In this document: one piece after another, positions 27,172-40,624 of the stretch
How the letters are laid out: every line of letters begins with the position of its first letter
Position numbering within the stretch: position 1 is the first letter of the stretch
Virus record (IMG/VR): IMGVR_UViG_3300015189_000004
Span: 1-57,358 of that record
Length of the DNA: 57,358 nt
Source of the DNA: a virus
Lineage: Duplodnaviria > Caudoviricetes
Strand: one strand, 5' to 3'
The notes under the pieces: generated by a model
What the model was told of the DNA's origin: nothing
Database searches by the model: none
What the model saw: the letters and a program-made list of their open reading frames with translations, nothing else
Translations under genes and position numbers: made by a program

Positions 27172-27247
27172 ATAACGCCTACCATCCTATCAACGGAGAA
27201 ACGGCTGACCACATAGTGGAAACCGCTAAAGCGGAATGGTATCTCAT
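27163..27247 (+). ncRNA. Candidate small RNA A
   Basis: ATGAGACCCAT...ATGGTATCTCAT terminal stem with a bulge; inner A-CCAC-ATA-GTGG-A and A-CCGC-TAAA-GCGG-A hairpins; then TTTTCTGCC. Confidence 0.6.
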
Positions 27248-27310
27248 TTTTCTGCCTCATCCTTCTAGAATCCTCTAGCAGGCAATTGTGAAACTAGTAA
27301 GGAGATAGGC

Positions 27311-27703
27311 ATGAACATGGACCAGCGTGCGAAGATCAAGGACCACTTCCGTGAGAACAAGAACGTGTATATCGCTGCTGGTGTTGGCGTCCTCGTCGGT
27401 GCTGCCGGCTGTGTCTTCCTGAAAGATTCATCCACACTTGTCTCGATTCGAGAGACTCTGAACTTCAAGTGGAAATCGCCGACGACAAATGTTGTTCAGT
27501 TGATCATTCCGCCACTTGGTGATGCTGGGAATGTTGTTCAGTGTGTTGAAACAGGAACGATCTATGCGAGTCAAGGTCAAGCAGCACGAGAGCTTGGTGT
27601 CCGTGCTACGGACGTCTCGAAGCATATGCATGGTGTTCAAGAGCACGTCGCTGGATTGCATCTAAAGCTTCTAGGCAAGGCTGGCGAACCACTCGCAGGA
27701 TAA
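27311..27703 (+). CDS. Membrane-anchored protein with C-terminal NUMOD1-like HTH (paralogue of 39869)
   Basis: TM segment VYIAAGVGVLVGAAGCVFL, FKWKSPTTN, VQCVETGTIYASQGQAARELGV; the C-terminus resembles that of the HNH at 34523. Confidence 0.75.
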   Translation: MNMDQRAKIKDHFRENKNVYIAAGVGVLVGAAGCVFLKDSSTLVSIRETLNFKWKSPTTNVVQLIIPPLGDAGNVVQCVETGTIYASQGQAARELGVRATDVSKHMHGVQEHVAGLHLKLLGKAGEPLAG

Positions 27704-27724
27704 ACCCGCCCTATAATGAGAACC
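27693..27724 (+). promoter_or_regulatory. Promoter motif, copy 5 (overlaps the 27311 stop codon)
   Basis: TCGCAGGATAAACCCGCCCTATAATGAGAACC. Confidence 0.85.
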
Positions 27725-27795
27725 ACACTACCGGTCACCCGCTTACGGGAGGCTGACTACCCGCTTACGGGAAGTTGAAAAGTAGTGTGGTTCTC
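27716..27795 (+). ncRNA. Candidate small RNA B (2 x ACCCGCTTACGGGA)
   Basis: Perfect 14-bp terminal stem 27718-27731/27782-27795; repeats at 27737 and 27759 with G.U-containing lower stems. Confidence 0.75.
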
Positions 27796-27803
27796 CTTTT
27801 GCC

Positions 27804-27835
27804 ACGCAGGAAAACCACACCCTATAATGAGAACC
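27804..27835 (+). promoter_or_regulatory. Promoter motif, copy 6
   Basis: ACGCAGGAAAACCACACCCTATAATGAGAACC. Confidence 0.85.
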
Positions 27836-27935
27836 TAGTATCTGGATCACCCGATAAGGGAGATCTGAATGGCCACCCGATAAGGGAGACCTACTTGCCA
27901 CCCGATAAGGGAGACAACAGATACTAGGTTCTCAT
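27827..27935 (+). ncRNA. Candidate small RNA C (3 x CACCCGATAAGGGAGA)
   Basis: Perfect 18-bp terminal stem 27827-27844/27918-27935; repeats at 27848, 27874 and 27899 with covarying flanks. Confidence 0.78.
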
Positions 27936-27967
27936 TTTTCTGCCTAAACTCAACGAAAGGAATTGTT

Positions 27968-28090
27968 ATGTACTCACAGTGCAGAAAGCGTTACGGATTC
28001 TGGAACTTCATCGGAGACGTCCTCATGACGTGTCTCACAAGTGGGCTCTGGCTCATCTGGATCTTCGTTCGTGAGATGCGTCGTCGCTGA
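27968..28090 (+). CDS. Small membrane protein (40 aa)
   Basis: Read by eye: GAAAGGA RBS, then MYSQCRKRYGFWNFIGDVLMTCLTSGLWLIWIFVREMRRR. Confidence 0.65.
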   Translation: MYSQCRKRYGFWNFIGDVLMTCLTSGLWLIWIFVREMRRR

Positions 28091-28091
28091 C

Positions 28092-28241
28092 ATGCGTCTC
28101 ATATTCTGGGTCTCCATGCTGATCATCGCCGCAGGGTTCATCGCACGCTGGTACCGCGTCAGTGCGCCTCAGTCTCAGACAACAAATCTGCCGGAGACTT
28201 CCGGTGAAACGCTCGAAAGGAACACCGATGACGCTGCTTGA
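28092..28241 (+). CDS. Small membrane protein
   Basis: MRLIFWVSMLIIAAGFIARW...; starts 1 nt after the previous stop. Confidence 0.5.
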   Translation: MRLIFWVSMLIIAAGFIARWYRVSAPQSQTTNLPETSGETLERNTDDAA

Positions 28242-29001
28242 CATCGCAAAGAAGGTTGAGAGACTTGCCATTGAGAACTCTCCGGCCATTCTGACAGCGA
28301 TTGCTGTTACTGGATCACTGGCCACAGCATATCTTGCTGGTTCGGCCTCGTTCAAGGCTGCGGATCTGATTGCGGACGAGCAGTACCGCTTGGACCTGCA
28401 CCCGACGGCACACCAGCTCGAAACCAAGGAGAAGTTCTACCTCGTATGGAAAGCCTATATCCCAGCCGCTGGTACGGGTGTCGTGACCATAGTGTGCATC
28501 ATCGGCGCCAACCGTATCGGATCACGTCGGGCTGCAGCAGTAGCTGCCGCGTACACGATATCCGAGAAGGCATTCACCGAGTACCGGGAAAAGGTCGTCG
28601 AGAAGATGGGCGAAGCCAAGGAGCGGAAGGTCCGCGATGAGGTGGCGCAGGATCAGGTCAATCGGAATCCTGCCGGATCTCGAGAGATCGTCATCACTGG
28701 CAATGGCGACGTGCTCTGCTATGACGTCTTCTCGGAGCGATATTTCGAGAGCGACATGGAGACGCTCAAGAAGGCTCAGAACGATCTGAACTACACGCTC
28801 CTCAACGATGGTTATGCCTCTCTCGGGGACTTCTACGGCAAGATTGGCCTCTCTGCGATGCCGTATTCCGAAGAAGTTGGCTGGACGAGTGAGCATCTGA
28901 TGGAGATGCAGCTCTCGACCACGCTTTCGGATGATCAGCGTCCGTGCATTTCGCTCGACTTCCGCGTGACACCTGTGCGGGACTACTACCGCGTTCACTG
29001 A
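28228..29001 (+). CDS. Conserved phage protein (DUF6353-like; paralogue of 32080)
   Basis: NSPAILTAIAVTG...AAAVAAAY...AFTEYREKV...GYASLGDFY...VGW. Family name recalled, not searched. Confidence 0.65.
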   Translation: MTLLDIAKKVERLAIENSPAILTAIAVTGSLATAYLAGSASFKAADLIADEQYRLDLHPTAHQLETKEKFYLVWKAYIPAAGTGVVTIVCIIGANRIGSRRAAAVAAAYTISEKAFTEYREKVVEKMGEAKERKVRDEVAQDQVNRNPAGSREIVITGNGDVLCYDVFSERYFESDMETLKKAQNDLNYTLLNDGYASLGDFYGKIGLSAMPYSEEVGWTSEHLMEMQLSTTLSDDQRPCISLDFRVTPVRDYYRVH

Positions 29002-29011
29002 GGCCTACGCC

Positions 29012-29043
29012 TCGCAAGAATTACGGGTCCTATAATGAGACCC
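29012..29043 (+). promoter_or_regulatory. Promoter motif, copy 7
   Basis: TCGCAAGAATTACGGGTCCTATAATGAGACCC. Confidence 0.85.
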
Positions 29044-29066
29044 ATCCAACAAAAAGGAGAACCATC

Positions 29067-29261
29067 ATGTCCGAGCAGATCCCCGACATCAGCACCCTTC
29101 CCACCAAGAAGTTCGCATTCCTCAACAAGACCAACGCCATCCGCGTCGCCGTCGCAGCCACCGCTGTCGCCGTCGTCGCAGTACTCGTCGTCAAGTTGAA
29201 GGACGGCGCCTTCGAGGACGAGATCGGTGACCTGACCGTCGTCGAGACCCCCGAGTCCTGA
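29067..29261 (+). CDS. Small single-pass membrane protein
   Basis: AAGGAG RBS; hydrophobic run VAVAATAVAVVAVLVV. Confidence 0.7.
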   Translation: MSEQIPDISTLPTKKFAFLNKTNAIRVAVAATAVAVVAVLVVKLKDGAFEDEIGDLTVVETPES

Positions 29262-29285
29262 CACACCCCCAAGTTTGACCCCTCG

Positions 29286-29331
29286 AAAGGAAAGGCTTTG
29301 TAACCAACAATTACAGAGCCTTTCCTTTTTG
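29286..29331 (+). terminator. Intrinsic terminator
   Basis: AAAGGAAAGGCTTTGTAA-ccaacaa-TTACAGAGCCTTTCCTTT followed by TTG. Confidence 0.75.
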
Positions 29332-29357
29332 CTTTGACCAATGATAAGGAATACTAG

Positions 29358-29777
29358 ATGCAACACAAAGATTTCGAACGCGTTCTCGATCAGCAGATCA
29401 AGATGTGTCAGGATGTTCTGGTCGTCAAATCCGGAAGCTACTCGACTGAGTCAGACAAACTGCACAACTTCAAGGTTGCCGCCGATATTCAGGGATGCAC
29501 GATCCCGCAGGCGGTTGCCGGGATGATGGTCAAGCACACGGTCTCGATCTATGACATGTGCGCCAGTGACAAGGGCTTCGACATGGAGATCTGGGACGAA
29601 AAGATCACAGACCACCTGAACTACCTGTTCTTGCTCAAGGCAGCAGTGCTCGAAGAGGCCTACGACACGCTTCCGTGGGCACTGCTTCCCTATTTCGAGT
29701 CGGGACCACCCGCTCCGTCGGCTCACGCCACAGTCAACACGGACGGCTCTATCCACCTGCATTGCACTGAGATCTGA
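29358..29777 (+). CDS. Hypothetical protein (possible all-alpha nucleotide-modification-associated domain)
   Basis: K...Y....DKLHNFK...M.KH...EKITDHLNYL pattern. Confidence 0.55.
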   Translation: MQHKDFERVLDQQIKMCQDVLVVKSGSYSTESDKLHNFKVAADIQGCTIPQAVAGMMVKHTVSIYDMCASDKGFDMEIWDEKITDHLNYLFLLKAAVLEEAYDTLPWALLPYFESGPPAPSAHATVNTDGSIHLHCTEI

Positions 29778-29928
29778 GAGGCATACCCATGCATGATCGT
29801 CTTACCAAGATCCAATACGTCGCTTTCATCGCTGGTGCTTCGGTTGGACTCCTCATGGCCCGAGGGTTCATTGCTGGCGTCAACAAGGTCTTCCCGCCCA
29901 ACCCCATCAAGAACTGAAAGGCACACCC

Positions 29929-30486
29929 ATGCTCAAGAAAGACATCACATACCAGGACCTCGACGGCAACTCCCTCACGGAGACCTTCTGGTTCAACCTC
30001 TCCAAGGCTGAGATCGCCAAGATGGAGCTCAGCAAGAACGGCGGGGGCCTGACCGGCTACCTCAAGGCCATCGTGGAGGCAGAAGACGGAGAGGCCATCG
30101 TCACTACCTTCGAGGAGATCTTGACCAAGGCCTACGGCATCCGCAATGCGGACAACAAGGGCTTCGACAAGTCTCCTGAGATCTCGAAGCACTTCATGTC
30201 GACCGATGCTTATTCGGTTCTGTTCATGGAGCTCGTGACGGACGCTGAGGCAAGCTCGGCCTTCATTCGGGGGATCGTTCCGGCAGATCTCAGCGAGAAG
30301 ATGGACGACACCGTCCTTCCGGCTGGAATGCTTCCGAAGTCTGACTTCCGTCTCGAGAGTGTAGGGACGGATCTTCACAGTGCGGCTGAGACGGTCTCTG
30401 CTGCGGTCGAGACGGCAAAGACGTCGAACATGACTCTCGACGAGATGAAGGCTGCGATCCGCAAGGCCGAAGAGAACAGCCAGTAG
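29929..30486 (+). CDS. Conserved hypothetical protein
   Basis: GAAAGG RBS; MLKKDITYQDLDGN...FWFNLSKAE; strong codon bias. Confidence 0.75.
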   Translation: MLKKDITYQDLDGNSLTETFWFNLSKAEIAKMELSKNGGGLTGYLKAIVEAEDGEAIVTTFEEILTKAYGIRNADNKGFDKSPEISKHFMSTDAYSVLFMELVTDAEASSAFIRGIVPADLSEKMDDTVLPAGMLPKSDFRLESVGTDLHSAAETVSAAVETAKTSNMTLDEMKAAIRKAEENSQ

Positions 30487-30595
30487 TTCATATTTGCGAG
30501 ATGGGAGTTAGCAAGGGTCCTTTCTCAGGGGTCTCGCCCTATTCCGGATGCTGACTTATAAACGCCAGCCGACGTTCCCATATCATGTGCCCACC

Positions 30596-30627
30596 TCGCA
30601 GAAACTCCACGCCCTATAATGAGACCC
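30596..30627 (+). promoter_or_regulatory. Promoter motif, copy 8
   Basis: TCGCAGAAACTCCACGCCCTATAATGAGACCC. Confidence 0.85.
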
Positions 30628-30646
30628 CTATGAAAGGAACACCACC

Positions 30647-30901
30647 ATGACCAAAACTGACATCACCAAAGCTGTCGTTCGCAACATCGTTGGCTACACC
30701 ACTTCGTTCACTATCGCAAACCTCATCCGTCGCAACCTCCAGACAGAATCCACCATTGAAACGGTCGAGATCTATGTCGGGTCGGTTGTCGTCGGTGCCA
30801 TGATTGCCGAGAGTGCACAGAAGTACGTAGACAAAGAGATTGACGACCTGACCGCCGCGTGGAAGTCCATGAAGACCACCATGAAAGCCAACCAGAACTA
30901 G
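30647..30901 (+). CDS. Hypothetical protein
   Basis: GAAAGGA RBS after promoter copy 8. Confidence 0.7.
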   Translation: MTKTDITKAVVRNIVGYTTSFTIANLIRRNLQTESTIETVEIYVGSVVVGAMIAESAQKYVDKEIDDLTAAWKSMKTTMKANQN

Positions 30902-30906
30902 ACCCT

Positions 30907-30948
30907 CAAACCCACAGCCCCTAACACGGGCTTACGGTTTGCTTTTTT
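30907..30948 (+). terminator. Hairpin with CTAACAC loop and T tract
   Basis: CAAACC-cac-AGCCC-CTAACAC-GGGCT-tac-GGTTTG-CTTTTTT. Confidence 0.75.
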
Positions 30949-30963
30949 GACAGAGGACTAATT

Positions 30964-31269
30964 ATGGAATATCCCGGCAACAGTTATGCCATGCGAGGCG
31001 AGATGAAGCGCGTTGCCAGCGAAGATCCAAGCACATATCAAAACACCTCTGGCCATTACTACGTTCGACTCAAATACACGGTGTGGCCTGAACTCTACGG
31101 GGACGAACTCCCGATTCCTTTTCCGACTCTCAAAGCAGCACTATTCTTTGCTGAGATCAACATCACGTCCACAGTAGTTCGTGCTCGTGTGTACACGCCA
31201 TCCGGCACTCTGGTCACTATATTTGCCTACTCCAATAGTGGGACAGTACGCAATGACCTTCTCTCTTAG
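30964..31269 (+). CDS. Hypothetical protein
   Basis: GAGGA RBS; ORF track. Confidence 0.6.
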   Translation: MEYPGNSYAMRGEMKRVASEDPSTYQNTSGHYYVRLKYTVWPELYGDELPIPFPTLKAALFFAEINITSTVVRARVYTPSGTLVTIFAYSNSGTVRNDLLS

Positions 31270-31281
31270 ATTGAGGACAAA

Positions 31282-31932
31282 ATGGTTAGCGAATTCCCCA
31301 GCAACAGCAAGAACCCTACGAACGAAAAGAAGTCGAAGGAAGAGCCGAAGAAGGTCGAGCGGGTCATTCAGGGCGAAGTCATTCGTCGAAAGAAGCCGAT
31401 GCTGCGACGTCTCAAGGACACCTTCGGCGGTGGCGACGCCAAGGGCGCTGTCAGTTTCGTTCTGATCGACGTGATTCTTCCGATGACGAAGGACATGGTT
31501 GCTGACGCGGTCAGTCAGGGCGCCGAGCGAATGATATTCGGTGAGTCGAGGTCTACGAGTCGTCGAAGTGGTCGTCATTTCGGAAGCGGCTCGAACAACC
31601 ACACCAACTACCAGAAGTCGTTCCGAGGAGGCTCTCGTGACAACTACCGAGACGATCCTCGGGCAAACCCGACACGCAAGGCACGAGCAAGCTTCGACTT
31701 CGAAGACATCATCATCCCCACGCGCGCTGAGGCTGAGGACGTTATCGACCAGCTCTTTGAGTTGATCTCGAAGTTCGAGGCAGTCACCGTCGCGGAACTC
31801 TACAGTCTCGTAGGTGTCACACCGACCTACACCGACGAGCAGTGGGGCTGGTACGACCTTCGTGGTGCAGGACCGACCCGGATCAGCAATGGATATCTGC
31901 TTGAACTCCCGAAGCCGGAACCTCTCGACTGA
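31282..31932 (+). CDS. Conserved hypothetical protein
   Basis: GAGGA RBS; C-terminal VTVAELYSLVG...WGW motif. Confidence 0.7.
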   Translation: MVSEFPSNSKNPTNEKKSKEEPKKVERVIQGEVIRRKKPMLRRLKDTFGGGDAKGAVSFVLIDVILPMTKDMVADAVSQGAERMIFGESRSTSRRSGRHFGSGSNNHTNYQKSFRGGSRDNYRDDPRANPTRKARASFDFEDIIIPTRAEAEDVIDQLFELISKFEAVTVAELYSLVGVTPTYTDEQWGWYDLRGAGPTRISNGYLLELPKPEPLD

Positions 31933-32069
31933 TGGCGAGCAACAGCAAAGAGCGAGAGTTGTTGAAGACTGTATATCCCAGCAAGCAGTGGGCTGAGAAA
32001 GTCAACAACATGACCACCGCTCAAGTCATAGCCGTAGTTATGCGGCTCAAGATGCAGAACAAACTTTAA
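31932..32069 (+). CDS. Small hypothetical protein (45 aa)
   Basis: Read by eye: TGATG coupling, MASNSKERELLKTVYPSKQWAEKVNNMTTAQVIAVVMRLKMQNKL. Confidence 0.55.
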   Translation: MASNSKERELLKTVYPSKQWAEKVNNMTTAQVIAVVMRLKMQNKL

Positions 32070-32079
32070 GGAGTCAAGC

Positions 32080-32988
32080 ATGAATCTGAAACTCACAACG
32101 ATTAAGAACGCCATCACGTCGAAGGCGGCACGACAGATCCTCGTCACTCAGAAGCACTCACCCACGCTGCTTTTCGGTGCGGGCGTCGTTGGTGTCATCG
32201 CAACAGTGGTGCTTGCCTCTCGGGCAACGCTATATCTGGATGCTGCCATTGACGAGACCAACGATAAGCTGGTCAAGGCATGGGACATGCACGAGGAGAA
32301 CAAGAACTACACAGACAGCCAGTGGAACCGCGACAAGCTCACCATCCGTTCTCGTGGTGCCATGCAGATCGCCAAGTTGTACTGGCCGGCAGTCACCGTG
32401 GGCGTCATCTCCATCGGTTGCCTCAGTGGTTCACACGTCATTCTCACCAAGCGCAACGTTGGCTTGACCGCAGCATACGCCGCTGTCGAGAAGGGTTTCG
32501 CCGAGTATCGGGCGAGGGTCACCAGCGAGTTCGGTGAGGACAAGGATCGTGAGCTTCGCTACGGGACCGAGATGCATGAGGTCATCTCCGAGACGTCCAA
32601 GGGTGAGCATATTGTCACGAAAGTTCCGAGGGTTGGTCCCAATGGCTCGTCGATCTACGCCAAGTACTTCGATGAGTTCAACAAGAACTGGAACCGGGAA
32701 GCGGACTACAACCGGATCTTCATCCAGTGCCAGCAGGACTACGCCAACCACCTGCTTCACGCTCGTGGGCACGTCACTCTCAACGACGTGTATGACTCCC
32801 TCGGTATCGAGCGGAGCACCGCAGGATTCGTCGTCGGCTGGGTTCTGAACAAGGACGGTAGCGGAGACAATTTCATCGATTTCGGTGTATACGACAACAC
32901 CCAGAAGGCCCGAGACTTCGTCAACGGCCGAGAGGGTTCCATTCTGCTCGACTTCAATGTCGACGGCGTCATCTACGACAAGATCTGA
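32080..32988 (+). CDS. Conserved phage protein (DUF6353-like; paralogue of 28228)
   Basis: KHSPTLLFGAGVVG...LTAAY...GFAEYRARV...GHVTLNDVY...VGW...LDFNVDG. Confidence 0.7.
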   Translation: MNLKLTTIKNAITSKAARQILVTQKHSPTLLFGAGVVGVIATVVLASRATLYLDAAIDETNDKLVKAWDMHEENKNYTDSQWNRDKLTIRSRGAMQIAKLYWPAVTVGVISIGCLSGSHVILTKRNVGLTAAYAAVEKGFAEYRARVTSEFGEDKDRELRYGTEMHEVISETSKGEHIVTKVPRVGPNGSSIYAKYFDEFNKNWNREADYNRIFIQCQQDYANHLLHARGHVTLNDVYDSLGIERSTAGFVVGWVLNKDGSGDNFIDFGVYDNTQKARDFVNGREGSILLDFNVDGVIYDKI

Positions 32989-33162
32989 AAGGATCGAAAT
33001 TATGAACGCAAAGCCGAAGCCCCCGACCAAGAAGACTCCTACCCTGAAGCAGACTGCATGGGGTAAGAACTTCCTCCCCGATCAGGGCCCGAAGATCAAT
33101 GGGTCCTCACTGCAGTACACGTCCAACTCGTCCAAGTCCTTTCAGATTCCGGAGGCTCGCGC

Positions 33163-33990
33163 ATGAATCGCCCCGAGATCGTCTCTGGTTGTGGTGGCAT
33201 TGTTCTCGGCCTAAGTGTTGGAGGTGCTGTTGCCTTCGTTCTCGTGAAGAAAATGGAGGCGAAGTACAACCTCATCGCTGAGAAAGAGATTCAGGAGGCG
33301 AAGAAGTTCTACTCGTCCAAGTTCAAGACGGGCGACTTTGCCTCACCTGAGATGATGGTCGCAAGTCTTGGTATCGACTCTCCGGACGAAGTACTGCCAT
33401 CAGTCAAGGATGCTGCCGAAGCCCTCGTCAGTTACAAGGCCGACGGTGAGGTCATCGAGACTGACAGCGATATCGTCGCTCTCGTTGAGCGTGAGATGAA
33501 CGAAGCTGAACCGATCGAAGAGATCAACGCTCGTCTCAACAAGATGCCCGAGCAGGTTCGGAACATCTTCAAGGACGCAGAGCCCGATCCCACGGGTGTC
33601 TTCGATTACAAGGAGGAGTTGAAGCATCGTACAAAGACGACTCCATACGTGATCTCGCATGACGAGTTCATGGAGAACGAAGAAGAGCACAGTCAGGTCT
33701 CGGTCACATATTTCGAGGGTGACAACGTCATCACCGATGAGAAAGACGAGATCCTTGAGGATGTCGACAACACCATCGGCGAAGTCAACCTCGAGAAATT
33801 CGGACACGGCTCCAAAGACAGCAAGATCGTCTACGTCCGGAATGATCGGCTCGACCTTGACTTCGAAGTGGTTCTGAGTCATGGCAAGTACACCGAGGAA
33901 GTTCTCGGATTCCTCGAGCACTCAGGCGAAACTCGTCACTCTCGTGATGGTCGCTCCAAGATCCGCCGATTCAGGGGTGACGATGAGTGA
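33163..33990 (+). CDS. Acidic protein with N-terminal TM segment
   Basis: ORF track; PYVIS..EF and VYVRN.RL..DFEV motifs. Confidence 0.7.
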   Translation: MNRPEIVSGCGGIVLGLSVGGAVAFVLVKKMEAKYNLIAEKEIQEAKKFYSSKFKTGDFASPEMMVASLGIDSPDEVLPSVKDAAEALVSYKADGEVIETDSDIVALVEREMNEAEPIEEINARLNKMPEQVRNIFKDAEPDPTGVFDYKEELKHRTKTTPYVISHDEFMENEEEHSQVSVTYFEGDNVITDEKDEILEDVDNTIGEVNLEKFGHGSKDSKIVYVRNDRLDLDFEVVLSHGKYTEEVLGFLEHSGETRHSRDGRSKIRRFRGDDE

Positions 33991-34520
33991 TGAGCGAGCC
34001 ACTGGATGATCTATATCTGACGTGGCTCTACAGTCAAACCGGCTCTGTCAAGCTCAAGAACCCAGCAAGGACCTACTGGTCCCTTCTCAGACTGCTCTAT
34101 ACCAAAGAGTTCGTCTGGATAATCCCAAATGATGACAACCGAGTAGAGGACGGGCGTGACCTAAGAGACGAGTTCTGTGCGGTCCACAATATTGACGATG
34201 CGGATCAAGAGTGGATGGACATGGGCTGCTCCATGCTCGAGATGATGATTGCCTTATCGCGGAGGCTCGCCTTTGAAGCTGAGGGTGAGCCCCGCGACTG
34301 GTTTTGGCAGATCATTACAAACCTCGAGTTGCGACATTACAACGACAAAGTTCGTATCCCACTAGATGAATTGGACGAACGTCTCAACATGATCATATTC
34401 CGGACGTACGATCCGGATGGTCAAGGAGGACTCTTCCCACTGAAGTGGCCTGAAAGGGATCAACGCGACATCGAAATCTGGTACCAATTAGCCGGTTACA
34501 TCATGGAAAGGGATAACTAA
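33987..34520 (+). CDS. Conserved hypothetical protein
   Basis: DDNRVEDGRDLR, CSMLEMMIALS and GGLFP...IWYQ motifs. Confidence 0.7.
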   Translation: MMSEPLDDLYLTWLYSQTGSVKLKNPARTYWSLLRLLYTKEFVWIIPNDDNRVEDGRDLRDEFCAVHNIDDADQEWMDMGCSMLEMMIALSRRLAFEAEGEPRDWFWQIITNLELRHYNDKVRIPLDELDERLNMIIFRTYDPDGQGGLFPLKWPERDQRDIEIWYQLAGYIMERDN

Positions 34521-34522
34521 GC

Positions 34523-35026
34523 ATGGACGGGATCGAGGTCTGGTTAGAGATCGAAGAGGCGCCAAGATATCTTGTAAGCAGTCTTGGTCGCGTTCAAAAC
34601 CGTATGACTGGTCGGATACTAAGTCAAAGTCCAAATACGAGAGGTTATCCAAAAGTTCGATTGGTAATTGGTAATCGATCGTGGACCAGATCTGTTCATA
34701 GACTCGTTTCGGAAGCTTTTTTCGATGGTGATCACACAGGTCTTGAACCAAACCATGGTGACGGACAAAAACATAACAACTACATAGCAAATTTGGAGTG
34801 GACTACGCATAAGAAAAATATGATACATGCTGTTCGAACTGGACTGTTTACGCCTTCGGGAGGATCTAAAAAGGTTCCGATACGAATCGTGGAGACAGAT
34901 GAATTTTTTGACAGCATAAGTTCGTGTGCTAGAGCCATTGGTGGTAGACACGGGTCCATTCAACAATGTTTAGATGGTCGTCAACGATCACATAAAGGTT
35001 ACACATTCGAGTATGTTGATGACTAA
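34523..35026 (+). CDS. NUMOD4-HNH-NUMOD1 homing endonuclease
   Basis: YLVSSLGRV, VHRLVSEAF, NHGDGQKHNNYIANLEWTT..KNM.HA; visibly more AT-rich than neighbours. Confidence 0.88.
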   Translation: MDGIEVWLEIEEAPRYLVSSLGRVQNRMTGRILSQSPNTRGYPKVRLVIGNRSWTRSVHRLVSEAFFDGDHTGLEPNHGDGQKHNNYIANLEWTTHKKNMIHAVRTGLFTPSGGSKKVPIRIVETDEFFDSISSCARAIGGRHGSIQQCLDGRQRSHKGYTFEYVDD

Positions 35027-35051
35027 CTCTGTCAAATAGAAAGGAGGGTAG

Positions 35052-38000
35052 ATGGATTTCTATCAGATGTGTACCCGAGAGAACAAGGGCGTACTGGACC
35101 TATATCCAGACTTTACAATCGGTAGGTCAAAGGATCTCATGGTGCGAGGGCATTCGTTCTATGCAATTTGGGACGAAGAGCGTGGCCTATGGTCCACCGA
35201 TGAGTATGACGTTCAGCGTCTCGTAGATGCAGAACTTCGGAAGTACACTGAAGACTCTCTTTCGTCGTCCGGAATCACGCACAACGTGAAGTACCTGCAG
35301 TCGTTCGGCAGCAATAACTGGACTCAGTTCCAGAGTTTCATGAAGAATGTCAGTGATAACAGCCACCAGTTGGACGAGAAGCTCACTTTCGCAAACTCTG
35401 AGACGAAGAAGTCCGATTACGTCAGTCGGAGTCTTCCATATCCTCTAGCCGCTGGTGATTATAGTGCGTGGGACGAACTCGTAGGAACGCTGTACTCCGT
35501 CGAGGAACGCGCAAAGATTGAATGGGCCATTGGTGCAGTAGTTTCTGGAGACTCGAAGAAGATTCAGAAGTTCATTGTTCTTTACGGTCCTGCTGGTACC
35601 GGGAAGTCAACAATTCTGAACATAATCCTGAAGATGTTCGAGGGCTACACCACAACATTCGAGGCGAAAGCTCTCGGATCAGCCAACGGCTCATTTGCCA
35701 CAGAAGTCTTCAAGAACAACCCCCTAGTTGCGATCCAACAGGATGGGGATCTCTCCAAGATCGATGACAACACCAAACTGAACTCGATCATTGCTCACGA
35801 AGACATGACTATGAATGAGAAGTTCAAGCCTAGCTACACGGCCAAGGTGAACGCCTTCTTATTCATGGGTACCAACCAGCCAGTCAAGATCTCAGATGCG
35901 AAGTCTGGGATTATTCGACGTCTGATCGACGTGCATCCGACTGGCGTCAAGATTCCCGTGAACCACTACCACACTTTGATGTCCAAGATCGACTTCGAGT
36001 TGGGTGCTATTGCCCAACATTGTCTCGAGGTCTATCAGCGTATGGGGAAGAACTACTACAACGCGTATCGTCCACTTGAGATGATGTTGCAGACAGACAT
36101 ATTCTTCAACTTCATCGAAGCGAACTACGACGTATTCAAAGAACAAGACGGTGCCACACTCAAGCAGGCGTACCAGTTGTACAAAGAGTTCTGCAGCGAT
36201 ACCGGCATCGAACGCGTTCTTGCTCAGTACAAGGTTCGTGAGGAGTTGCGAAACTACTTCGAGGACTTCAAGGATCGTGTCACTATCGATGGGATTGTCA
36301 TGAGGAGTTACTACTCGGGTTTCACCGCCCGTCCCTTCAAGGCTCCGTCGAAAACCGACACGAGTTTCTCTCTGGTCATGGACGAGCGTGAGTCTACGTT
36401 TGATCAAGACTATGCAGAGTACCCTGCTCAGTATGCCAACGCAGACGAGACGCCTCTTCACAGATGGTCGTCAGTCAAGACAACGCTTGCTGATATTGAC
36501 ACGACCAAGGTTCACTTTGTTCAGATCCCAGAGAACCATATTGTGATCGACTTCGACCTCAAGAATGAACTGGGCGAGAAGTCTCTTGAGCAGAACCTGG
36601 AAGCAGCAAGCTTCTGGCCAGCAACATACGCTGAGATCAGCAAGGGTGAGGGAGGCGTTCACCTTCACTATATCTATGACGGTGACGTCTCTGAACTCGC
36701 ACCTGAGTACTCAACGGGTATCGAGGTTAAAGTCTATACGGGCAAAAGCGCACTGCGCCGAAAGCTCACCAAATGTAACAACGTACCTGTGGCGTCCATT
36801 AACAGTGGGCTCCCCATTAAGGAGAAGAAGATGCTCCACACGAACACCATCACCAGCGAGAAAGGTCTGCGTGACCTGATCATTCGGAATCTTCGTAAGG
36901 AGATTCATCCGGGGACCAAGCCTTCGATCGACTTCATCCAGAAGATCCTCGACGACGCCTACGACTCAGGCATGGCGTATGACCTGACCGACATGCGCTC
37001 TACCATCATGGCGTTTGCTAGCAACAGCAGCAACCAGCCCATGCAGGCGCTCAAGATCGTGCAGAAGATGAAGTTCCAGGGGAAAGAGGACGCCCAGCCA
37101 ACTGTCGCACAGGCTAAGGACGAACGAATCGTCTTGTTCGACCTCGAGGTCTACCCGAACCTGTTCGTCGTGTGTTGGAAGTACAAAGGCGATGCTGATG
37201 TCGCTCGGATGGTCAACCCGACAGCGCAGGATGTTGAGGCGTTGTTCAGATTCAAACTGGTGGGGTTCAACAACCGTCGGTATGACAACCACATCCTCTA
37301 CGCACGCTACCTCGGGTACAGCAACGAGCAGTTGTATATCCTCTCGCAGAAGATCATCAACAACGATCACGGCGCAATGTTCGGTGAGGCATACAGCCTC
37401 TCATACGCCGACATCTACGACTTCACCTCGAAGAAGCAGAGCCTGAAGAAGTACGAGATCGAGTTGGGGATTCATCACATGGAGATGGACCTTCCGTGGG
37501 ATGAGCCTGTGGCCGAAGAGGATATTCCTCGTGTTGTGGAGTACTGCTGCAACGACGTCAATGCCACTGAGGCAGTTCTTGACGACCGCAAACAGGACTT
37601 CGTCGCTCGAAGCATTCTCGCTGATCTGAGTGGTCTTGAGATCAACGACACCACACAGAAGCACACTGCGAAGATCGTCTTCGGGAATGACAAGTTCCCG
37701 CAAAAGCAGTTCCAGTACACCGATCTGAGCAAGGAGTTCCCGGGGTACGTATTCGACCTCGGCAAAAGCACGTACAAGGGCGAGGAGGTTGGTGAGGGAG
37801 GCTACGTCTACGCGGAGCCTGGCATCTACGAGAACGTCGCACTTCTGGATATTGCGTCGATGCATCCGACAACCATCGATGTCCTGAACATGTTTGGGGA
37901 CTACACGAAGAACTACATCGACCTGAAAGATGCTCGTCTGGCTATCAAGCACGGCGAGTACGACTGGGCTCGGAAGCTCTTCGGTGGAAAGCTGAAGCCA

Positions 38001-38837
38001 TATCTCAAGGACGAGAAGGATGCAAAGGAGCTTTCCTACGCACTCAAGATCGTTATCAACATCGTCTATGGGTTGACTTCAGCGAAGTTCGACAACCCAT
38101 TCCGAGACACTCGCAACACGGACAATATCGTGGCTAAGCGTGGTGCTCTCTTCATGATCGATCTCAAGGAGTATGTCCAGAGCGAAGGATTCACTGTTGC
38201 TCACATCAAGACTGACTCGATTAAGATCCCGAACGCAACACCTGAGATCATCGAGAAGGTCTCTCTCTTTGGTTCCAAGTATGGCTACGACTTCGAGCAT
38301 GAGGCGACCTACACCAAGTTCTGCTTGGTCAACGACGCTGTCTATATCGCTCGGATCGATGAGAAAGAGAACCCGAATACGAAGTCTTGGATCGCGGTTG
38401 GTGCGCAGTTCCAGCACCCATTCGTATACAAGACTCTGTTCGACGTTCAGGCTGTCACGTTCGATGACTACTGCGAGACCAAGCAGGTCACTCAGGGTTC
38501 GATGTACCTGAACTTCGATGCTGTCCAGAGGCCAATGTTCATGGCGGAAGGAATGCACTTCGTTGGACGATGTGGTCGTTTCGTTCCTGTCACTCCAGAA
38601 AGCGGTGGCGGAGTTCTCGTTCGAGTCAAAGATGAGAAGCAGTACGCCGTGACGGGTACGAAGGGTTTCTTCTGGGTAGAAGCTGACGTGGCCAAGAATG
38701 TTGGTTGGGTTATCGATCCTGAAGATGACCCAACGAGTGACGCTGTTGTCATCGACATGGCCTATTTCGATCACCTCACTCGTGATGCAATCAAGACCAT
38801 CAACAAGTTCGGCGACTTCGAGGAGTTCGTGTCATGA
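35052..38837 (+). CDS. SF3 helicase-primase(AEP)-family B DNA polymerase fusion
   Basis: Walker A GPAGTGKST; prim-pol VIDFD and GVHLHY; exonuclease FDLEVY, GFNNRRYD, YCCNDV; PolB motifs LDIASMHP, KIVINIVYG, KTDS. Confidence 0.88.
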   Translation: MDFYQMCTRENKGVLDLYPDFTIGRSKDLMVRGHSFYAIWDEERGLWSTDEYDVQRLVDAELRKYTEDSLSSSGITHNVKYLQSFGSNNWTQFQSFMKNVSDNSHQLDEKLTFANSETKKSDYVSRSLPYPLAAGDYSAWDELVGTLYSVEERAKIEWAIGAVVSGDSKKIQKFIVLYGPAGTGKSTILNIILKMFEGYTTTFEAKALGSANGSFATEVFKNNPLVAIQQDGDLSKIDDNTKLNSIIAHEDMTMNEKFKPSYTAKVNAFLFMGTNQPVKISDAKSGIIRRLIDVHPTGVKIPVNHYHTLMSKIDFELGAIAQHCLEVYQRMGKNYYNAYRPLEMMLQTDIFFNFIEANYDVFKEQDGATLKQAYQLYKEFCSDTGIERVLAQYKVREELRNYFEDFKDRVTIDGIVMRSYYSGFTARPFKAPSKTDTSFSLVMDERESTFDQDYAEYPAQYANADETPLHRWSSVKTTLADIDTTKVHFVQIPENHIVIDFDLKNELGEKSLEQNLEAASFWPATYAEISKGEGGVHLHYIYDGDVSELAPEYSTGIEVKVYTGKSALRRKLTKCNNVPVASINSGLPIKEKKMLHTNTITSEKGLRDLIIRNLRKEIHPGTKPSIDFIQKILDDAYDSGMAYDLTDMRSTIMAFASNSSNQPMQALKIVQKMKFQGKEDAQPTVAQAKDERIVLFDLEVYPNLFVVCWKYKGDADVARMVNPTAQDVEALFRFKLVGFNNRRYDNHILYARYLGYSNEQLYILSQKIINNDHGAMFGEAYSLSYADIYDFTSKKQSLKKYEIELGIHHMEMDLPWDEPVAEEDIPRVVEYCCNDVNATEAVLDDRKQDFVARSILADLSGLEINDTTQKHTAKIVFGNDKFPQKQFQYTDLSKEFPGYVFDLGKSTYKGEEVGEGGYVYAEPGIYENVALLDIASMHPTTIDVLNMFGDYTKNYIDLKDARLAIKHGEYDWARKLFGGKLKPYLKDEKDAKELSYALKIVINIVYGLTSAKFDNPFRDTRNTDNIVAKRGALFMIDLKEYVQSEGFTVAHIKTDSIKIPNATPEIIEKVSLFGSKYGYDFEHEATYTKFCLVNDAVYIARIDEKENPNTKSWIAVGAQFQHPFVYKTLFDVQAVTFDDYCETKQVTQGSMYLNFDAVQRPMFMAEGMHFVGRCGRFVPVTPESGGGVLVRVKDEKQYAVTGTKGFFWVEADVAKNVGWVIDPEDDPTSDAVVIDMAYFDHLTRDAIKTINKFGDFEEFVS

Positions 38838-39137
38838 CTGAGTTGGAGTTGTTGCACCGTGCTCACAAATTATTGAATGATGCTTCCGAAGTGCGATTCA
38901 GCATGGTTGAGAAAGTCGTTCCTCTCGCAACAGAGGCTCTTGCCTGCATAGCTTTGGCAGCAGAACTTCGTATTCGTAGGGAGAACGATGCTTGATCAGC
39001 CGATGGCCCGGGAGGTTTGTGATCACTCCTGGGCTTGGGTGCATCCTGCAGGAGCAAAGCATTCCGCAAGAATCTGTATGTCCTGTCATGAGCCCTCAGC
39101 AGAGTGGCTTAACACAATTATTGAAAAGGGAGACATC

Positions 39138-39410
39138 ATGGACGCACCGTTTCAGGTCATTGCCCGAACGATCGTCATGGAGTACGTCAACGAGCACCTC
39201 GAGAAGACGGACAACGTCACGGCTGGTCTCGACGACATCTACGTGGTCTGGTGGTCCAAGACACTCCAGAACTGGAAGGCGATGGTCAGCACCACGCTTC
39301 CCGACGGGATGTACTACGAGGTCACCCACAACGGTGACAAGAACGAGACATATCTCGACACGTACAAGAAGTTTGACAACATCGTCATTTCGGACCTGAA
39401 CCATGTGTGA
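39138..39410 (+). CDS. Small conserved phage protein (DUF6275-like)
   Basis: VVWWSKTLQNWKAMVST...DGMYYEVTHNGDKNETYLDTYKK. Family name recalled. Confidence 0.6.
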   Translation: MDAPFQVIARTIVMEYVNEHLEKTDNVTAGLDDIYVVWWSKTLQNWKAMVSTTLPDGMYYEVTHNGDKNETYLDTYKKFDNIVISDLNHV

Positions 39411-39868
39411 CTGCGAAGAGCGAATCCATGAAGGCATTCATTGCGGTAGCCCGGCGTGTGAGTGTCATCCATCCGAGTTTGTCTACATGAGTATCTCATT
39501 TCCTCGTGTAGGTCGAGAGACGGCCAAGGCGCTCGTCTTGACTCTCACAGAGGCGGCGGGTCTTATCCCGTACAACGTGTTCTTCGAGGCGTCGATCGAC
39601 GAAGACGAGGACAACGATGGCTGACGTCGTCGAGCTTCCGGACCCAGTCTGTCACTGTCAGGGACGCGATCACCCGAAGATCAGGTGTGGTAGTGAGCAT
39701 TGCCACTGTCACTGCGACCCGCACCGCTAGCGTTACCCCACGGCTCTTGGTCAAGGGGTTTGTGTTCTCTTGGGACTACCAGCGAACAATCATGGTAGAG
39801 ATTGAGATCACAGACCCCTTGGCCATCGCCGAAATTCAGCGAGACCTCATAACAAAGAAGGAGGCTTT

Positions 39869-40258
39869 ATGAAACACGAGATCAAGAAACATTTCCAAGA
39901 GAACAAACGAGTGTATCTCGTGGGTGCAGGGTGTCTTGTTGTTGGGGTTGCTGGAGCACTTATGCTTACGCGTAGCGATGCTCGAGTGACGGTAGACGCT
40001 TGGAAGTTCATCGAGTTCAAATGGAAGTCCCCAACGACAAACAACATAATGCAAACGGTCATGGAACGTCGAGGGCACCCGGGCTATGTTGTTCGATGTA
40101 TTGAGACTGGCAAGAAGTTTGCAAGCCAAAACCAAGCTGCTTCTGAAATGGGGCTAAACGCGGGGAATCTTTGTTCGCATTTGAACGGTAAGTATGCTCA
40201 CGTTCAAGGATTCACGTTTGAACGTCTTGGCGAAGCCATTGCCTCCGGGGTCGCATAA
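39869..40258 (+). CDS. Membrane-anchored protein with C-terminal NUMOD1-like HTH (paralogue of 27311)
   Basis: IKKHFQENKRVYLVGAGCLVVG...FKWKSPTTN...VRCIETGKKFASQNQAASEMG...HVQGFTFERLGE. Confidence 0.78.
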   Translation: MKHEIKKHFQENKRVYLVGAGCLVVGVAGALMLTRSDARVTVDAWKFIEFKWKSPTTNNIMQTVMERRGHPGYVVRCIETGKKFASQNQAASEMGLNAGNLCSHLNGKYAHVQGFTFERLGEAIASGVA

Positions 40259-40281
40259 AATACACGCTCTATAATGAGACC
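40251..40281 (+). promoter_or_regulatory. Promoter motif, copy 9 (overlaps the 39869 stop codon)
   Basis: TCGCATAAAATACACGCTCTATAATGAGACC. Confidence 0.85.
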
Positions 40282-40408
40282 AACCACTGGACGCCCGTTA
40301 AGGGTATCCGACAATGGACGCCCGTTAAGGGTATCCGACAATGGACGCCCGTTAAGGGTATCCAATACCAGACGCCCGTTAAGGGTATCGAAAAGTGGTT
40401 GGTCTCAT
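40274..40408 (+). ncRNA. Candidate small RNA D (4 x GACGCCCGTTAAGGGTATC, 27-nt period)
   Basis: Perfect 15-bp terminal stem 40274-40288/40394-40408; repeats at 40290, 40317, 40344 and 40371. Confidence 0.78.
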
Positions 40409-40410
40409 TT

Positions 40411-40495
40411 GAACCCATAACGTATAGGAGACCCCAGAAGGGGACACCTTTGCCGGAGACCCCAGAAGGGGACACTGGTAGTTATGGGTTCTCAT
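40411..40495 (+). ncRNA. Candidate small RNA E (2 x GGAGACCCCAGAAGGGGACAC)
   Basis: 11-bp stem GAACCCATAAC/GTTATGGGTTC; repeats at 40427 and 40455; ends in TCTCAT. Confidence 0.72.
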
Positions 40496-40592
40496 AAACA
40501 AGATTAGAACTCCAATCAACGAGTCACCCCTTTAGGGGAGGCCATGTTATGCACTGCAGGCTTGGGTTGTACACGGATTCTTGTTTTCTCAT
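40496..40592 (+). ncRNA. Candidate small RNA F (single GTC-A-CCCC-TTTA-GGGG-A-GGC hairpin)
   Basis: AAACAAGA/TCTTGTTT stem; ends in TCTCAT followed by TTCTGCTT. Confidence 0.55.
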
Positions 40593-40624
40593 TTCTGCTT
40601 TCAAACAAAGAAGGAGTAGCAATT

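Follow-up and report, generated by a model that had tools for sequence, protein, structure and literature searches.

Does a small membrane-protein gene that runs directly into a promoter, and from there into a row of RNA-like repeats, form a functional pair with those repeats? The question arises twice in the window, by which we mean the whole stretch of DNA analyzed here, a virus contig of 57,358 bases (IMG/VR record IMGVR_UViG_3300015189_000004) estimated to be 96% complete. Two paralogous genes (gene 1 and gene 2; Table 1), each encoding a transmembrane (TM) helix and a NUMOD-like helix-turn-helix (HTH), are followed at once by repeat-rich structured units. We found that this arrangement is a recurring cassette, in which a TM-NUMOD gene runs into a promoter-like element that overlaps its end and the hairpin-array units come next. 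The window phage is a near-complete actinophage, kin to the Gordonia DJ-cluster and Rhodococcus ReqiPepy6 phages; its primase/polymerase (35052-38837, 1261 aa) shares 63-64% identity with the counterparts in ReqiPepy6, ReqiPoco6, and the Gordonia DJ cluster (Deejayvirinae).

Two old paralogues with a membrane anchor and a homing-endonuclease tail

Genes 1 and 2 (27311-27703 and 39869-40258) are paralogues with 51/120 identities (43%; BLASTP E 7e-33), and share the motifs that the original prediction had singled out. Both match phrog_27818, a phage protein family without assigned function: gene 1 with residues 3-124 on profile positions 7-129 of 133 (E 6.4e-25), and gene 2 over its whole length (E 1.7e-20). 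At the C-terminus, the I-HmuI NUMOD-like domain PF22083 scores above its cut-off of 27 in gene 2 (35.4 bits) and below it in gene 1 (20.6 bits). No Pfam nuclease domain was found in either paralogue, the N-terminal half being formed by a basic helix and the TM segment. The likeness of the C-terminal domain to the tail of the HNH gene at 34523-35026, noted earlier from the letters alone, held up as well: that gene carries PF22083 (40 bits) together with NUMOD4 and HNH_3, and its tail aligns with both paralogues. PADLOC returned only weak matches of the two paralogues to a homing-endonuclease tail.

The family is large: of 8000 candidates scored, 380 reached E ≤ 1e-3, and lengths among the top 120 stay within 121-146 aa. 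A tree of 49 members has three main clades, with gene 1 (closest relative at locus L032, 69%) and gene 2 in different ones, and therefore no recent duplication is involved; as far as the tree can tell, the two genes are old paralogues. Since the same arrangement is also found in dozens of divergent phages, a chance neighborhood and the simple co-duplication first offered as an alternative, at least a recent one, can be set aside. One further family open reading frame (ORF), at L057:247-600, has an in-frame TAG after the N-terminal motif and may be a pseudogene, a sequencing error, or a case of recoding.

An AlphaFold2 model built from 16 family sequences was confident only at residues 70-125 (predicted local distance difference test, pLDDT, ~90), where it consists of two short strands, two helices, and a final strand. 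In Foldseek searches the closest PDB fold was I-HmuI (1u3e; probability 1.00, E 0.03), followed by a Paulinella protein that binds DNA and, as a weak match, by the DNA-binding domain of I-TevI; the structural relatives of this domain all bind double-stranded DNA. The ESM Atlas gave the same picture and placed the family protein in unnamed virus-only clusters. The C-terminal domain of gene 1 is not basic.

Across the best 120 family proteins, a hydrophobic 17-residue segment (mean Kyte-Doolittle 2.15) starts at a median residue of 20. The 15 residues flanking it hold on average 4.3 lysines plus arginines (K+R) before the segment and 2.3 after it, the N-terminal flank being more positive in 88/120 proteins, equal in 23, and less positive in 9. 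The positive-inside rule would thus predict an N-in/C-out topology with the basic N-terminus in the cytoplasm and the HTH outside it, though this is a prediction only. Such a topology would make it less likely that the HTH grips RNA or promoter DNA on the cytoplasmic side of the membrane. Conservation within the family proteins is highest in the N-terminal K/H/N-rich helix, which is predicted to be cytoplasmic.

A promoter-like element overlaps both stop codons

As the original prediction stated, the stop codons of both genes (TAA 27701-27703 and TAA 40256-40258) lie inside the promoter-like element, between its TCGCA and TATAAT boxes. The layout of this element is TCGCA-N14-TATAATGAGA. Its core CTATAATGAGA occurs exactly 7 times in the window, all on the + strand, and 7, 10, 9, and 8 times in ReqiPepy6, Gravy, Avazak, and Arthrobacter phage Qui, respectively, all forward; reversed-pattern controls gave 0 in the window and in these four phages. 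The consensus of 57 TATAATGAGA sites, taken from the window and the fetched regions of the same four phages, is TCGCAgaaattACAcg.CcTATAATGAGAcCCcta.gaaAggaa. Behind most sites the standard arrangement is a leader of ~24 nt and then a small ORF, often for a membrane protein. The perfect -10 box and the position of the element suggest that it acts as a promoter. A tRNA gene directly behind the same element in both ReqiPepy6 and ReqiPoco6 indicates that it drives RNA genes.

Two side observations concern this element. The tRNAs just mentioned (L070:5701-5776 and L005:3207-3281) are odd, being called Ala with anticodon AGC by ARAGORN and annotated as tRNA-OTHER, with a T-run at the end and the same promoter type. 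Near-identical promoter-leader cassettes of the form TCGCA-N14-TATAATGAGACCCCTAYGAAAGGA-N6-ATG stand in the window at 25863, 26346, 26622, 29030, and 30614, each with one small, often membrane-protein ORF, and related element sites are found at 27158, 27711, 27822, and 40269. The conservation of this cassette in Gordonia, Rhodococcus, and Arthrobacter phages suggests a shared factor or a strong constraint.

Closed stems around rows of identical hairpins

Four promoter sites in the window lead into ORF-less structured units (A, B, C, and D), and the claim that repeat-rich units stand directly behind both genes was borne out by tandem repeats and by fold z-scores of -5.1 to -7.2 for B-E. A stem of 11-19 bp joins the sequence just behind the -10 box to the end of the unit in B, C, D, and E, where it encloses 2, 3, 4, and 2 copies of a mini-hairpin, respectively. 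Predicted folds reach -43.1 kcal/mol for B (z -6.28), -48.1 for C (z -6.79), -66.5 for D (z -7.22), and -40.1 for E (z -5.09), and 0/200 shuffles fold as well in any of the four. The closing helices of B and E were also found by a promoter-blind scan; at the DNA level the closing stem extends to 19 bp in C (27826-27936) and to 16 bp in D (40273-40409). The tandem repeats lie at 27848-27915 in C (period 25, 2.7 copies) and at 40288-40389 in D (period 27, 3.8 copies, 93% matches). Unit A, with no promoter motif between it and gene 1, folds less convincingly than B-E (-22.8 kcal/mol, z -2.36, 3/200 shuffles as good). The short piece of unit F folded alone is not significant (z +0.35), so that the support for F comes from covariation.

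Measured over the units, the repeat period takes values of 22, 25, 27, and 28 nt, which is not a coding pattern. The ORFs that run through repeats (window 27775-27927 and 40274-40420, and the annotated Qui gene 76 at L004:2944-3078) are probably non-coding artefacts. Unit tails are rich in T (mean 5.4 in 10 nt vs 2.3 expected; at least 5 T in 15/23 units), those with fewer T being mostly inner units of multi-unit clusters, and a ribosome-binding site (RBS) and ORF lie directly behind the tail in 12/23 units. A terminator scan did not call the closing stems, which enclose 60-100 nt and not a small loop.

Table 1 Coordinates of the paralogues, promoter-like elements, structured units, and neighboring genes in the window.
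Feature	Position	Strand	Remarks
Promoter of unit A	27140..27164	+	Exact CTATAATGAGA at 27158; fits 57-site consensus TCGCAgaaattACAcg.CcTATAATGAGA; TCGCA, 14 nt, TATAAT
Unit A	27165..27245	+	Two different small hairpins, weak closing pairing, T-run 27247-27252
Paralogue 1 (gene 1), 130 aa	27311..27703	+	Basic N-terminus, TM helix, NUMOD-like HTH; type 1 clade
Promoter of unit B	27693..27717	+	TCGCA 27693-27697, TATAAT 27712-27717; spacer holds gene 1 TAA
Unit B	27718..27795	+	14-bp closing stem, two hairpins (CCCG/CGGG, loop CUUA, flanking A.A mismatch), tail CTTTTG
Promoter of unit C	27804..27828	+	ACGCA variant, TATAAT
Unit C	27829..27933	+	16-bp closing stem around three CACCC-GAUAA-GGGAGA; T-run behind
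TM ORF, 40 aa	27968..28090	+	After unit C, without own promoter; DUF6353 gene next
DUF6353 gene	28162-29001	+	E 6.9e-86
HNH homing endonuclease (comparator)	34523..35026	+	NUMOD-like tail; no RNA unit behind; primase/polymerase starts 35052
Paralogue 2 (gene 2), 129 aa	39869..40258	+	Type 2 clade (RRGHPG..RC.ETG)
Promoter of units D-E-F	40251..40275	+	TCGCA 40251-40255, TATAAT 40270-40275; spacer holds gene 2 TAA
Unit D	40276..40406	+	13-bp closing stem around four GGAC-GCCC-GUUAA-GGGU-AUCC
Unit E	40411..40491	+	11-bp closing stem around two GAGA-CCCC-AGAA-GGGG-ACAC; without own promoter
Unit F	40496..40597	+	Without own promoter; conserved structured RNA type
Pyrimidine-dimer glycosylase gene	40626..41050	+	First gene behind D-E-F

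Gene and units recur together across actinophages

In five annotated phages, 8/8 family genes are followed by the promoter and an ORF-less unit, as against 5/49 other promoter sites (Fisher p 7.8e-7, which is not a true probability because the cases are phylogenetically related). The eight are the two window genes, ReqiPepy6 gp065, Gravy gp54, Avazak gp45 and gp56, and Qui gp75 and gp172, with Avazak gp56 and Qui gp172 assigned to the family by alignment only. The five exceptions are units A and C of the window, which adjoin gene 1, and three units of another type, termed X, in ReqiPepy6, Gravy, and Avazak. One or two units also stand behind the family gene in the DJ phages Pherobrine, Conley, Odesza, Untouchable, and Artorias. 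Units of the X type are a separate observation: conserved, ORF-less, ~125 nt long, and preceded by the same promoter, they lie away from the family gene in ReqiPepy6, ReqiPoco6, Gravy, and Avazak (L005:3322-3450, L006:1651-1775, L007:1391-1520, L070:6126-6250), have no Rfam match, and were not seen in the window.

Homologues were checked for downstream units, the test suggested in the original prediction, and most had them. Inspected by eye, 11/15 IMG/VR loci (which include four named phages again, with L023 identical to L024) carry a closed-stem unit directly after the stop codon; in 2 more there is just a short stem, and the remaining 2 lack even that. Among metagenome loci, a unit is present in 23/33, partial in 1, and lacking in 9. 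These 33 remained from 37 after removal of L052 and L065 (cut by contig ends), L057 (in-frame stop), and L066 (an HNH-like tail outside the family), and include the identical or near-identical pairs L043/L044, L047/L048, and L053/L054, as well as three repeats of IMG/VR loci. An automated rule, under which the closing helix had to reach 9 bp and no ORF could begin in the 50 nt behind the site, was applied to 42 non-redundant loci and called a unit at 20/27 promoter-like sites at a family stop vs 12/74 sites elsewhere. Several of the latter 12 calls belong to a second unit or to one that stands immediately before a family gene, and where an ORF follows directly, only 2/44 sites reach 9 bp by chance.

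The link was also approached from the RNA side. A promoter-blind scan of both strands of six whole contigs (the window and G001-G005), looking for a helix of at least 11 bp that spans 45-330 nt around a tandem repeat of at least 12 nt, gave 16 gene-strand candidates with a helix of at least 13 bp. Eight of them lie 12-150 nt behind a family ORF, namely B, C, and D in the window, one each in G002, G003, and G004, and two in G005 behind its two paralogues. The other eight comprise seven calls that overlap one another within a single repeat-rich region closing G001, and one elsewhere in G005; the G001 units behind the family gene have two unlike hairpins and so were missed by the tandem criterion. 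In G001 at 57260-57666 (L194), long inverted repeats are densely clustered together with short tandem ones, close to the end of a contig that has direct terminal repeats. Scanning IMG/VR for tandem TCATTGCGA gave at least 119 matching stretches; the 80 loci examined were mostly unrelated repeats, and the only true units among them (L081 and L093) lay 47 and 36 nt behind family ORFs. One of the unrelated repeats, GTCATTGCGAG ... GAAGCAATC with ATTGC paired with GCAAT, is widespread in IMG/VR (L082, L085, L092, L110, L117, L124, and others). A pattern scan for the F type matched only the Tanis and ReqiPepy6 records.

A natural deletion also ties gene and RNAs together. ReqiPoco6 is collinear with ReqiPepy6, yet the family gene and its three units are absent from it as one block, the gp064-equivalent being followed by the same conserved spacer and then the promoter of the gp066-equivalent, while promoters elsewhere are kept. 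Gene and RNAs thus behave as one accessory block. As the promoters persist without the gene, the protein is not needed for them to exist, which removes promoter binding, one of the roles first suggested for the protein, as an essential function. Upstream of ReqiPepy6 gp065, a conserved non-coding stretch of ~130 nt (L001:2330-2470), kept in the gene-less ReqiPoco6 (L070:13130-13260), is possibly another structured element or the left border of the cassette. Genes and units also alternate, in the order A-gene 1-B-C in the window and with a second family gene directly behind the units of the first in L032 (~1000-1025) and L062 (~1480-1560). In ReqiPepy6, Pherobrine, Conley, OhMyWard, Untouchable, L033, and L045, a fresh promoter follows the unit, which makes the unit there a stand-alone transcription unit.

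Signs of selection on RNA structure

Units of the F type also stand behind the family gene in ReqiPepy6, Gravy/Tanis, Pherobrine, Odesza, and L040. In an alignment of six F-type sequences, 27 pairs are predicted and 96% of cells are paired; 11/27 pairs have changed on both sides, a number reached by 0/500 shuffles and compared with 1-3 such pairs in slid controls, and one U-G pair is kept in 6/6 sequences. On this comparative evidence, at least one unit type (F) is selected for RNA structure. Within hairpin classes, the loop or a 1x1 mismatch stays constant and the stems vary. The loop CAUUGCG, for instance, is kept in L014, L018, Qui, Conley, Artorias, and Pherobrine over stems that read GUC/GAC, AUC/GAU, CGUC/GACG, or GC/GC in different phages. 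Constant loops on varying stems are the opposite of what palindromic sites for a protein dimer would look like, and closing stems that reach from the initial transcribed bases to T-rich tails likewise argue for RNA.

Hairpin types follow the protein only loosely

We sorted the hairpins into classes by hand. Class I has flanks C-A-C ... G-A-G with an A.A mismatch below a G+C-rich stem and variable loops, and includes B, C, and F of the window among many others; class II is marked by its CAUUGCG loop; in class III the flanks read GAC-G ... U-AUC, there is a C.A mismatch, and the loop is either GUUAA or GAUUA (D in the window, L017, L045, and L061); many hairpins fall outside the three. Identical mini-hairpins occur in phages whose proteins are only ~30-55% identical: the 19-nt hairpin of unit D recurs unchanged in L017, along with a similar second helix, and the 17-nt hairpin of L018 recurs in the Qui unit behind gp172.

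Mapped on the tree of 49 proteins, hairpin class changes 21 times (minimum 4; shuffled mean 26.9), and a count as low was reached in 1/200 shuffles. By class, there are 9 changes for 16 rows in class I, 5 for 5 in class II, 3 for 4 in class III, and 8 for 8 under the label "none". All four class III loci belong to the type 2 clade. Close proteins can have different hairpins, as in L056/L067, which are near-identical, and in Avazak gp45 and Conley gp54; one unit is common to Conley gp54, where it is the second, and Artorias gp44, and so stands behind different paralogues. The association of protein and hairpin is therefore only loose, as expected from linkage, and without sign of one-to-one specificity. 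The co-variation of HTH and repeats that the original prediction put forward as a check accordingly came out weak: 21 changes stand against 26.9 in shuffles, near-identical proteins have different hairpins, and units have been swapped.

Neighboring genes and database searches

All long ORFs of the window are on the + strand. Searched as DNA against 50,697 phage records, neither locus gave a nucleotide-level match. Rfam returned 0 matches for the whole window at gathering scores and only weak, chance-level ones for the two unit regions at E up to 5, no CRISPR-DR family among them; on related loci it found only a tRNA. The exact 19-nt hairpin of unit D, the one hairpin scanned, had two single, chance-like hits inside coding-looking sequence among the genomes of 185,579 species and was in no array of these reference genomes. 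Literature searches on ReqiPepy6 promoters, the Gordonia DJ cluster, and phage non-coding RNA found no account of the units, though the original description of ReqiPepy6 and ReqiPoco6 may cover the promoters; for the string TATAATGAGA, no relevant paper was among the matches listed. Four candidate identities were dropped: a tRNA-like or Y-RNA-like RNA, for which there was no tRNA call; a hammerhead core in the loops of L063/L064, which had no matching stem layout; miniature inverted-repeat transposable elements, against which the arms differ from copy to copy; and a peptide encoded by the 27-nt repeat, the other periods being 22, 25, and 28.

Downstream of the first locus, the 40-aa TM ORF has the motif ..YGFWNF..LWLIWIFVREMRRR and is easily missed by gene callers; its relatives are kept behind units in L015, L023/L024, and L037, usually before a DUF6353 gene. 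The window has two DUF6353 (phrog_2152) membrane-protein paralogues (28162-29001 and 32080-32988), as do ReqiPepy6 and ReqiPoco6. Downstream of the second locus, no promoter motif lies between unit F and the pyrimidine-dimer glycosylase gene. The true start of the latter is likely GTG 40626, behind AAGGAG, because the Pfam Pyr_excise match begins only at residue 28 of the longer ORF 40544-41050, whose 5' part overlaps unit F. Pfam scans of 10 further window proteins identified a tail assembly chaperone, DUF6275, and a phage single-stranded DNA-binding protein, with no RNA-binding family among these 10; no ParA-like family or partition ATPase was found among the window genes scanned with Pfam, and PADLOC had no match for 8 further window proteins, three of which adjoin the units.

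What the cassette may do

Our preferred reading, which we hold tentatively and consider plausible without calling it probable, is that each paralogue supplies the protein side of an accessory cassette conserved in Deejayvirinae/Pepyhexavirus-like actinophages, and that the RNAs are multivalent hairpin ligands. The units would be RNA genes that end the mRNA of the upstream gene, as its terminator and 3' untranslated region (UTR), and would also arise separately by transcription from the promoter that overlaps this gene, either free or leading the following gene. Closed ends would yield stable RNAs, and the row of identical hairpins could serve as a multivalent decoy or scaffold for some factor, phage- or host-encoded, that binds hairpins. 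Linkage would make the neighboring protein the first candidate partner; beside it, the main candidates would be an antiterminator that acts on the leader and a factor of host defence. A role in host-phage or phage-phage conflict would fit the fast turnover of hairpin types and their swapping. Of the protein-plus-RNA system first proposed, the recurring, conserved gene-plus-RNA module stands, and the tethering to the membrane is weakened by the predicted HTH-out topology and by hairpin types that follow the protein tree only loosely.

Several results weigh against this reading. About a quarter to a third of the family genes (nine to eleven by eye) have no unit behind them. The + strand folds better in 17/27 units, a difference short of significance (Wilcoxon p 0.10), with 90 vs 66 G-U pairs. 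In a search of sequencing runs, no RNA run contained the window phage, the only match being one DNA run with a small share of words. Among the unit promoters, a generic sigma-70 scan flags only that of unit C (TTGCCA, 18 nt, TATAAT), and the start and end points of transcription are deduced from the letters. If transcription starts ~7 nt after TATAAT, GAGA(A/C)C and part of the closing stem would fall outside the promoter-derived RNA; in that case only transcripts that read through from the upstream gene would contain GAGA(A/C)C and, in several units, the pairing AAT from the -10 box, which would fit the second role of the unit as terminator and 3' UTR of the upstream gene. No binding partner for the hairpins was identified, the Pfam and PADLOC scans having found no known RNA-binding or defence family nearby. 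A simple cognate pairing of HTH and hairpin is made less likely by the topology predicted for the protein and by the weak co-variation, and we infer the decoy or scaffold function from architecture alone.

Special forms of this general reading, and its rivals, each rank lower. It seems unlikely to us that the TM-NUMOD protein and the hairpin RNAs make up an undescribed two-component phage system, in which an HTH module was turned into the membrane-bound partner of multivalent RNAs; possible forms would be an RNA-controlled membrane effector, an RNA-antidote pair, or a nucleic-acid-capturing membrane platform. If true, it would mean superinfection exclusion or counter-defence across hundreds of actinophage lineages, going by the 380 family proteins at E ≤ 1e-3.

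We are more doubtful that the protein forms a cognate complex, with the HTH or the basic N-terminal helix binding its own downstream hairpins in several copies at the membrane and the RNA acting as cofactor, antitoxin-like antagonist, or tether. Linkage is tight both ways, gene and RNA are gained and lost together, and genes and units alternate in clusters (window, L032, L062); there is also some subfamily signal, in that class III is confined to the type 2 clade and gene 2 and L017 have the identical hairpin, and a conserved N-terminal K/H/N-rich helix predicted to be cytoplasmic would be available for binding. Set against this are the topology that puts the HTH outside (K+R 4.3 vs 2.3; 88/120), the exclusively double-stranded DNA-binding relatives of the domain, a hairpin class that tracks the protein tree loosely with units swapped between paralogues, and the non-basic C-terminal domain of gene 1.

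To the same doubtful degree, the units might be cis-acting leaders or attenuators, with closing stem and T-run as a conditional terminator and the hairpins loading an antitermination or RNA-binding factor. This would suit the lack of a promoter between C and the 27968 and DUF6353 genes and between D-E-F and the genes from 40626, the promoter at 40270 being the last of its kind before ~17 kb of + strand genes. It would also suit the RBS and ORF directly behind the tail in 12/23 units, the place of units exactly between the promoter GAGA and the GAAAGGA ribosome site of the standard cassette, and the several loops that are 5-nt G..AA. However, in ReqiPepy6, Pherobrine, Conley, OhMyWard, Untouchable, L033, and L045 the unit has a new promoter behind it and leads no gene, and it is the downstream gene that varies and the upstream gene that is constant; Pfam scans of window proteins showed no N- or Q-like protein, with no search aimed at boxA or N-like proteins.

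We think it improbable that the units are decoys of one specific host defence, for example as an RNA anti-CRISPR that mimics host CRISPR repeats or as a mimic of another RNA that a defence nuclease attacks. Small RNAs with a strong promoter-like element, many hairpin copies, and fast turnover, with several hairpin types per phage and shuffling between phages, are what such a decoy would look like, and the layout of class 1 CRISPR repeats resembles the 25-28-nt units with their 13-15-nt hairpin; RNA anti-CRISPRs (Racrs; PMC10651486) offer a precedent. Yet neither CRISPR-DR nor any other Rfam family matched at E up to 5, the 19-nt D hairpin was found only twice in 185,579 species, singly and in coding-looking sequence, and the constant link to a TM-HTH gene would be left unexplained.

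Still less probable is the absence of any joint function, with the units as strong terminators or insulators that accumulate slippage repeats and the link due to a co-inherited mobile cassette descended from a homing endonuclease. Presence/absence polymorphism like that of free-standing homing-endonuclease genes, promoter repeats that offer recombination points together with shuffled units, and the nine to eleven family genes without units would all agree with it; but identical mini-hairpins are kept between phages with ~30-55% identical proteins, loops and mismatches are conserved within classes, the F type has compensatory changes, and ordinary terminators in the same genomes are simple hairpins. 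Binding sites beside the gene for the binding protein are the layout of sopB-sopC, and phi29 p16.7 is a membrane tether of phage DNA. Least probable of all is a corresponding DNA-level role, in which the small palindromes would be centromere-, iteron-, or operator-like sites for the upstream NUMOD HTH and the anchor would tether phage DNA. In its favor, the NUMOD HTH is of a DNA-binding kind, tandem repeats that each contain an inverted repeat make up, behind an HTH gene, the classic site-beside-gene layout, and the strand-asymmetry test (17/27, p 0.10) is compatible with DNA. Yet the palindrome centers (loops) are conserved and the half-sites (stems) co-vary, a long inverted repeat from the initial transcribed bases to the T-run makes sense only for a transcript, F-type helices have conserved U-G pairs, the predicted topology puts the HTH outside the cell, and no partition ATPase was found among the window genes scanned.

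Returning to the cassette with multivalent hairpin RNAs as the favored reading, its interest lies partly in the setting, small RNAs of Actinobacteria phages being almost unexplored. The units define a widespread and easily recognised RNA class, a closed stem around identical mini-hairpins with a shared promoter and a tie to one protein family. Both halves can be tested in cultured, non-pathogenic Gordonia terrae or G. rubripertincta with DJ-cluster phages, and ReqiPoco6 vs ReqiPepy6 provides a natural deletion of gene plus RNA. Should the RNAs prove to be decoys or scaffolds, the conflicts of phages with hosts or with one another would have a further layer, based on RNA, in this phylum. Annotation is corrected as well, in that the repeat-derived ORFs (window 27775-27927 and 40274-40420, and Qui gene 76) are probably not genes.

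Comparison with known systems

The protein half is closest to homing-endonuclease modules: the C-terminal ~55 residues match PF22083 and fold like I-HmuI (1u3e) and, less clearly, I-TevI. Unlike these, however, it has no HNH or GIY-YIG domain and instead a basic segment and a TM helix, and the window's own HNH gene has no RNA units. In phage phi29, p16.7 is a membrane-anchored DNA-binding protein of ~130 aa, similar in size and in its order of N-terminal TM helix, linker, and C-terminal helical DNA-binding domain. No sequence or fold match links the two, however, and the 19-aa basic segment before the TM helix here predicts the opposite orientation.

Turning to the RNA half, 3' UTR-derived small RNAs of enterobacteria are made from an internal promoter and commonly use the terminator of the mRNA. 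The units would resemble them in the promoter within the end of the upstream coding sequence, in the shared end, and in synthesis by read-through or separately, but have paired 5' and 3' ends and identical hairpins in place of a single-stranded seed, and are phage-encoded, found with Actinobacteria hosts, and tied to one protein family. CsrB and RsmZ are multi-hairpin sponge RNAs, and many copies of a small hairpin on a stable non-coding RNA would by analogy suggest multivalent protein capture; here, however, loops (CUUA, GAUAA, GUUAA, AGAA, UUUA, AUUGC) lack GGA, and no CsrA-like protein was seen. In lambda, nut/boxB leaders act with N, and a short late-promoter RNA before a terminator acts with Q. 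The succession of promoter, small hairpins, terminator (a putative one in the units), and downstream genes, with a regulator-like gene directly upstream of the promoter, is common to both, whereas here no N- or Q-like protein was recognised (no aimed search was made), hairpins are many and identical, and the unit often leads no gene.

Type III toxin-antitoxin systems of the ToxIN type have RNA repeats upstream of an RNase gene of the ToxN/AbiQ/CptN/TenpN kind. They share with the cassette a protein gene beside tandem RNA repeats and a terminator, putative in the cassette, between transcription units, but the repeats of the window are downstream of the constant gene, the protein is a TM-HTH and not an RNase, and PADLOC found no match to such toxins for the two paralogues or 8 further window proteins. 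Finally, Racrs (PMC10651486) are likewise phage-encoded small non-coding RNAs of repeat-like hairpin units; the units here differ in having no match to the CRISPR repeat families of Rfam or, for the exact D hairpin, to arrays in reference genomes, and in having a long closing stem and a tie to a TM-HTH gene. Taken together, the units fall among phage small RNAs, 3' UTR-type small RNAs, and multi-hairpin ligands, and could represent a new kind of system if protein and RNA act together.

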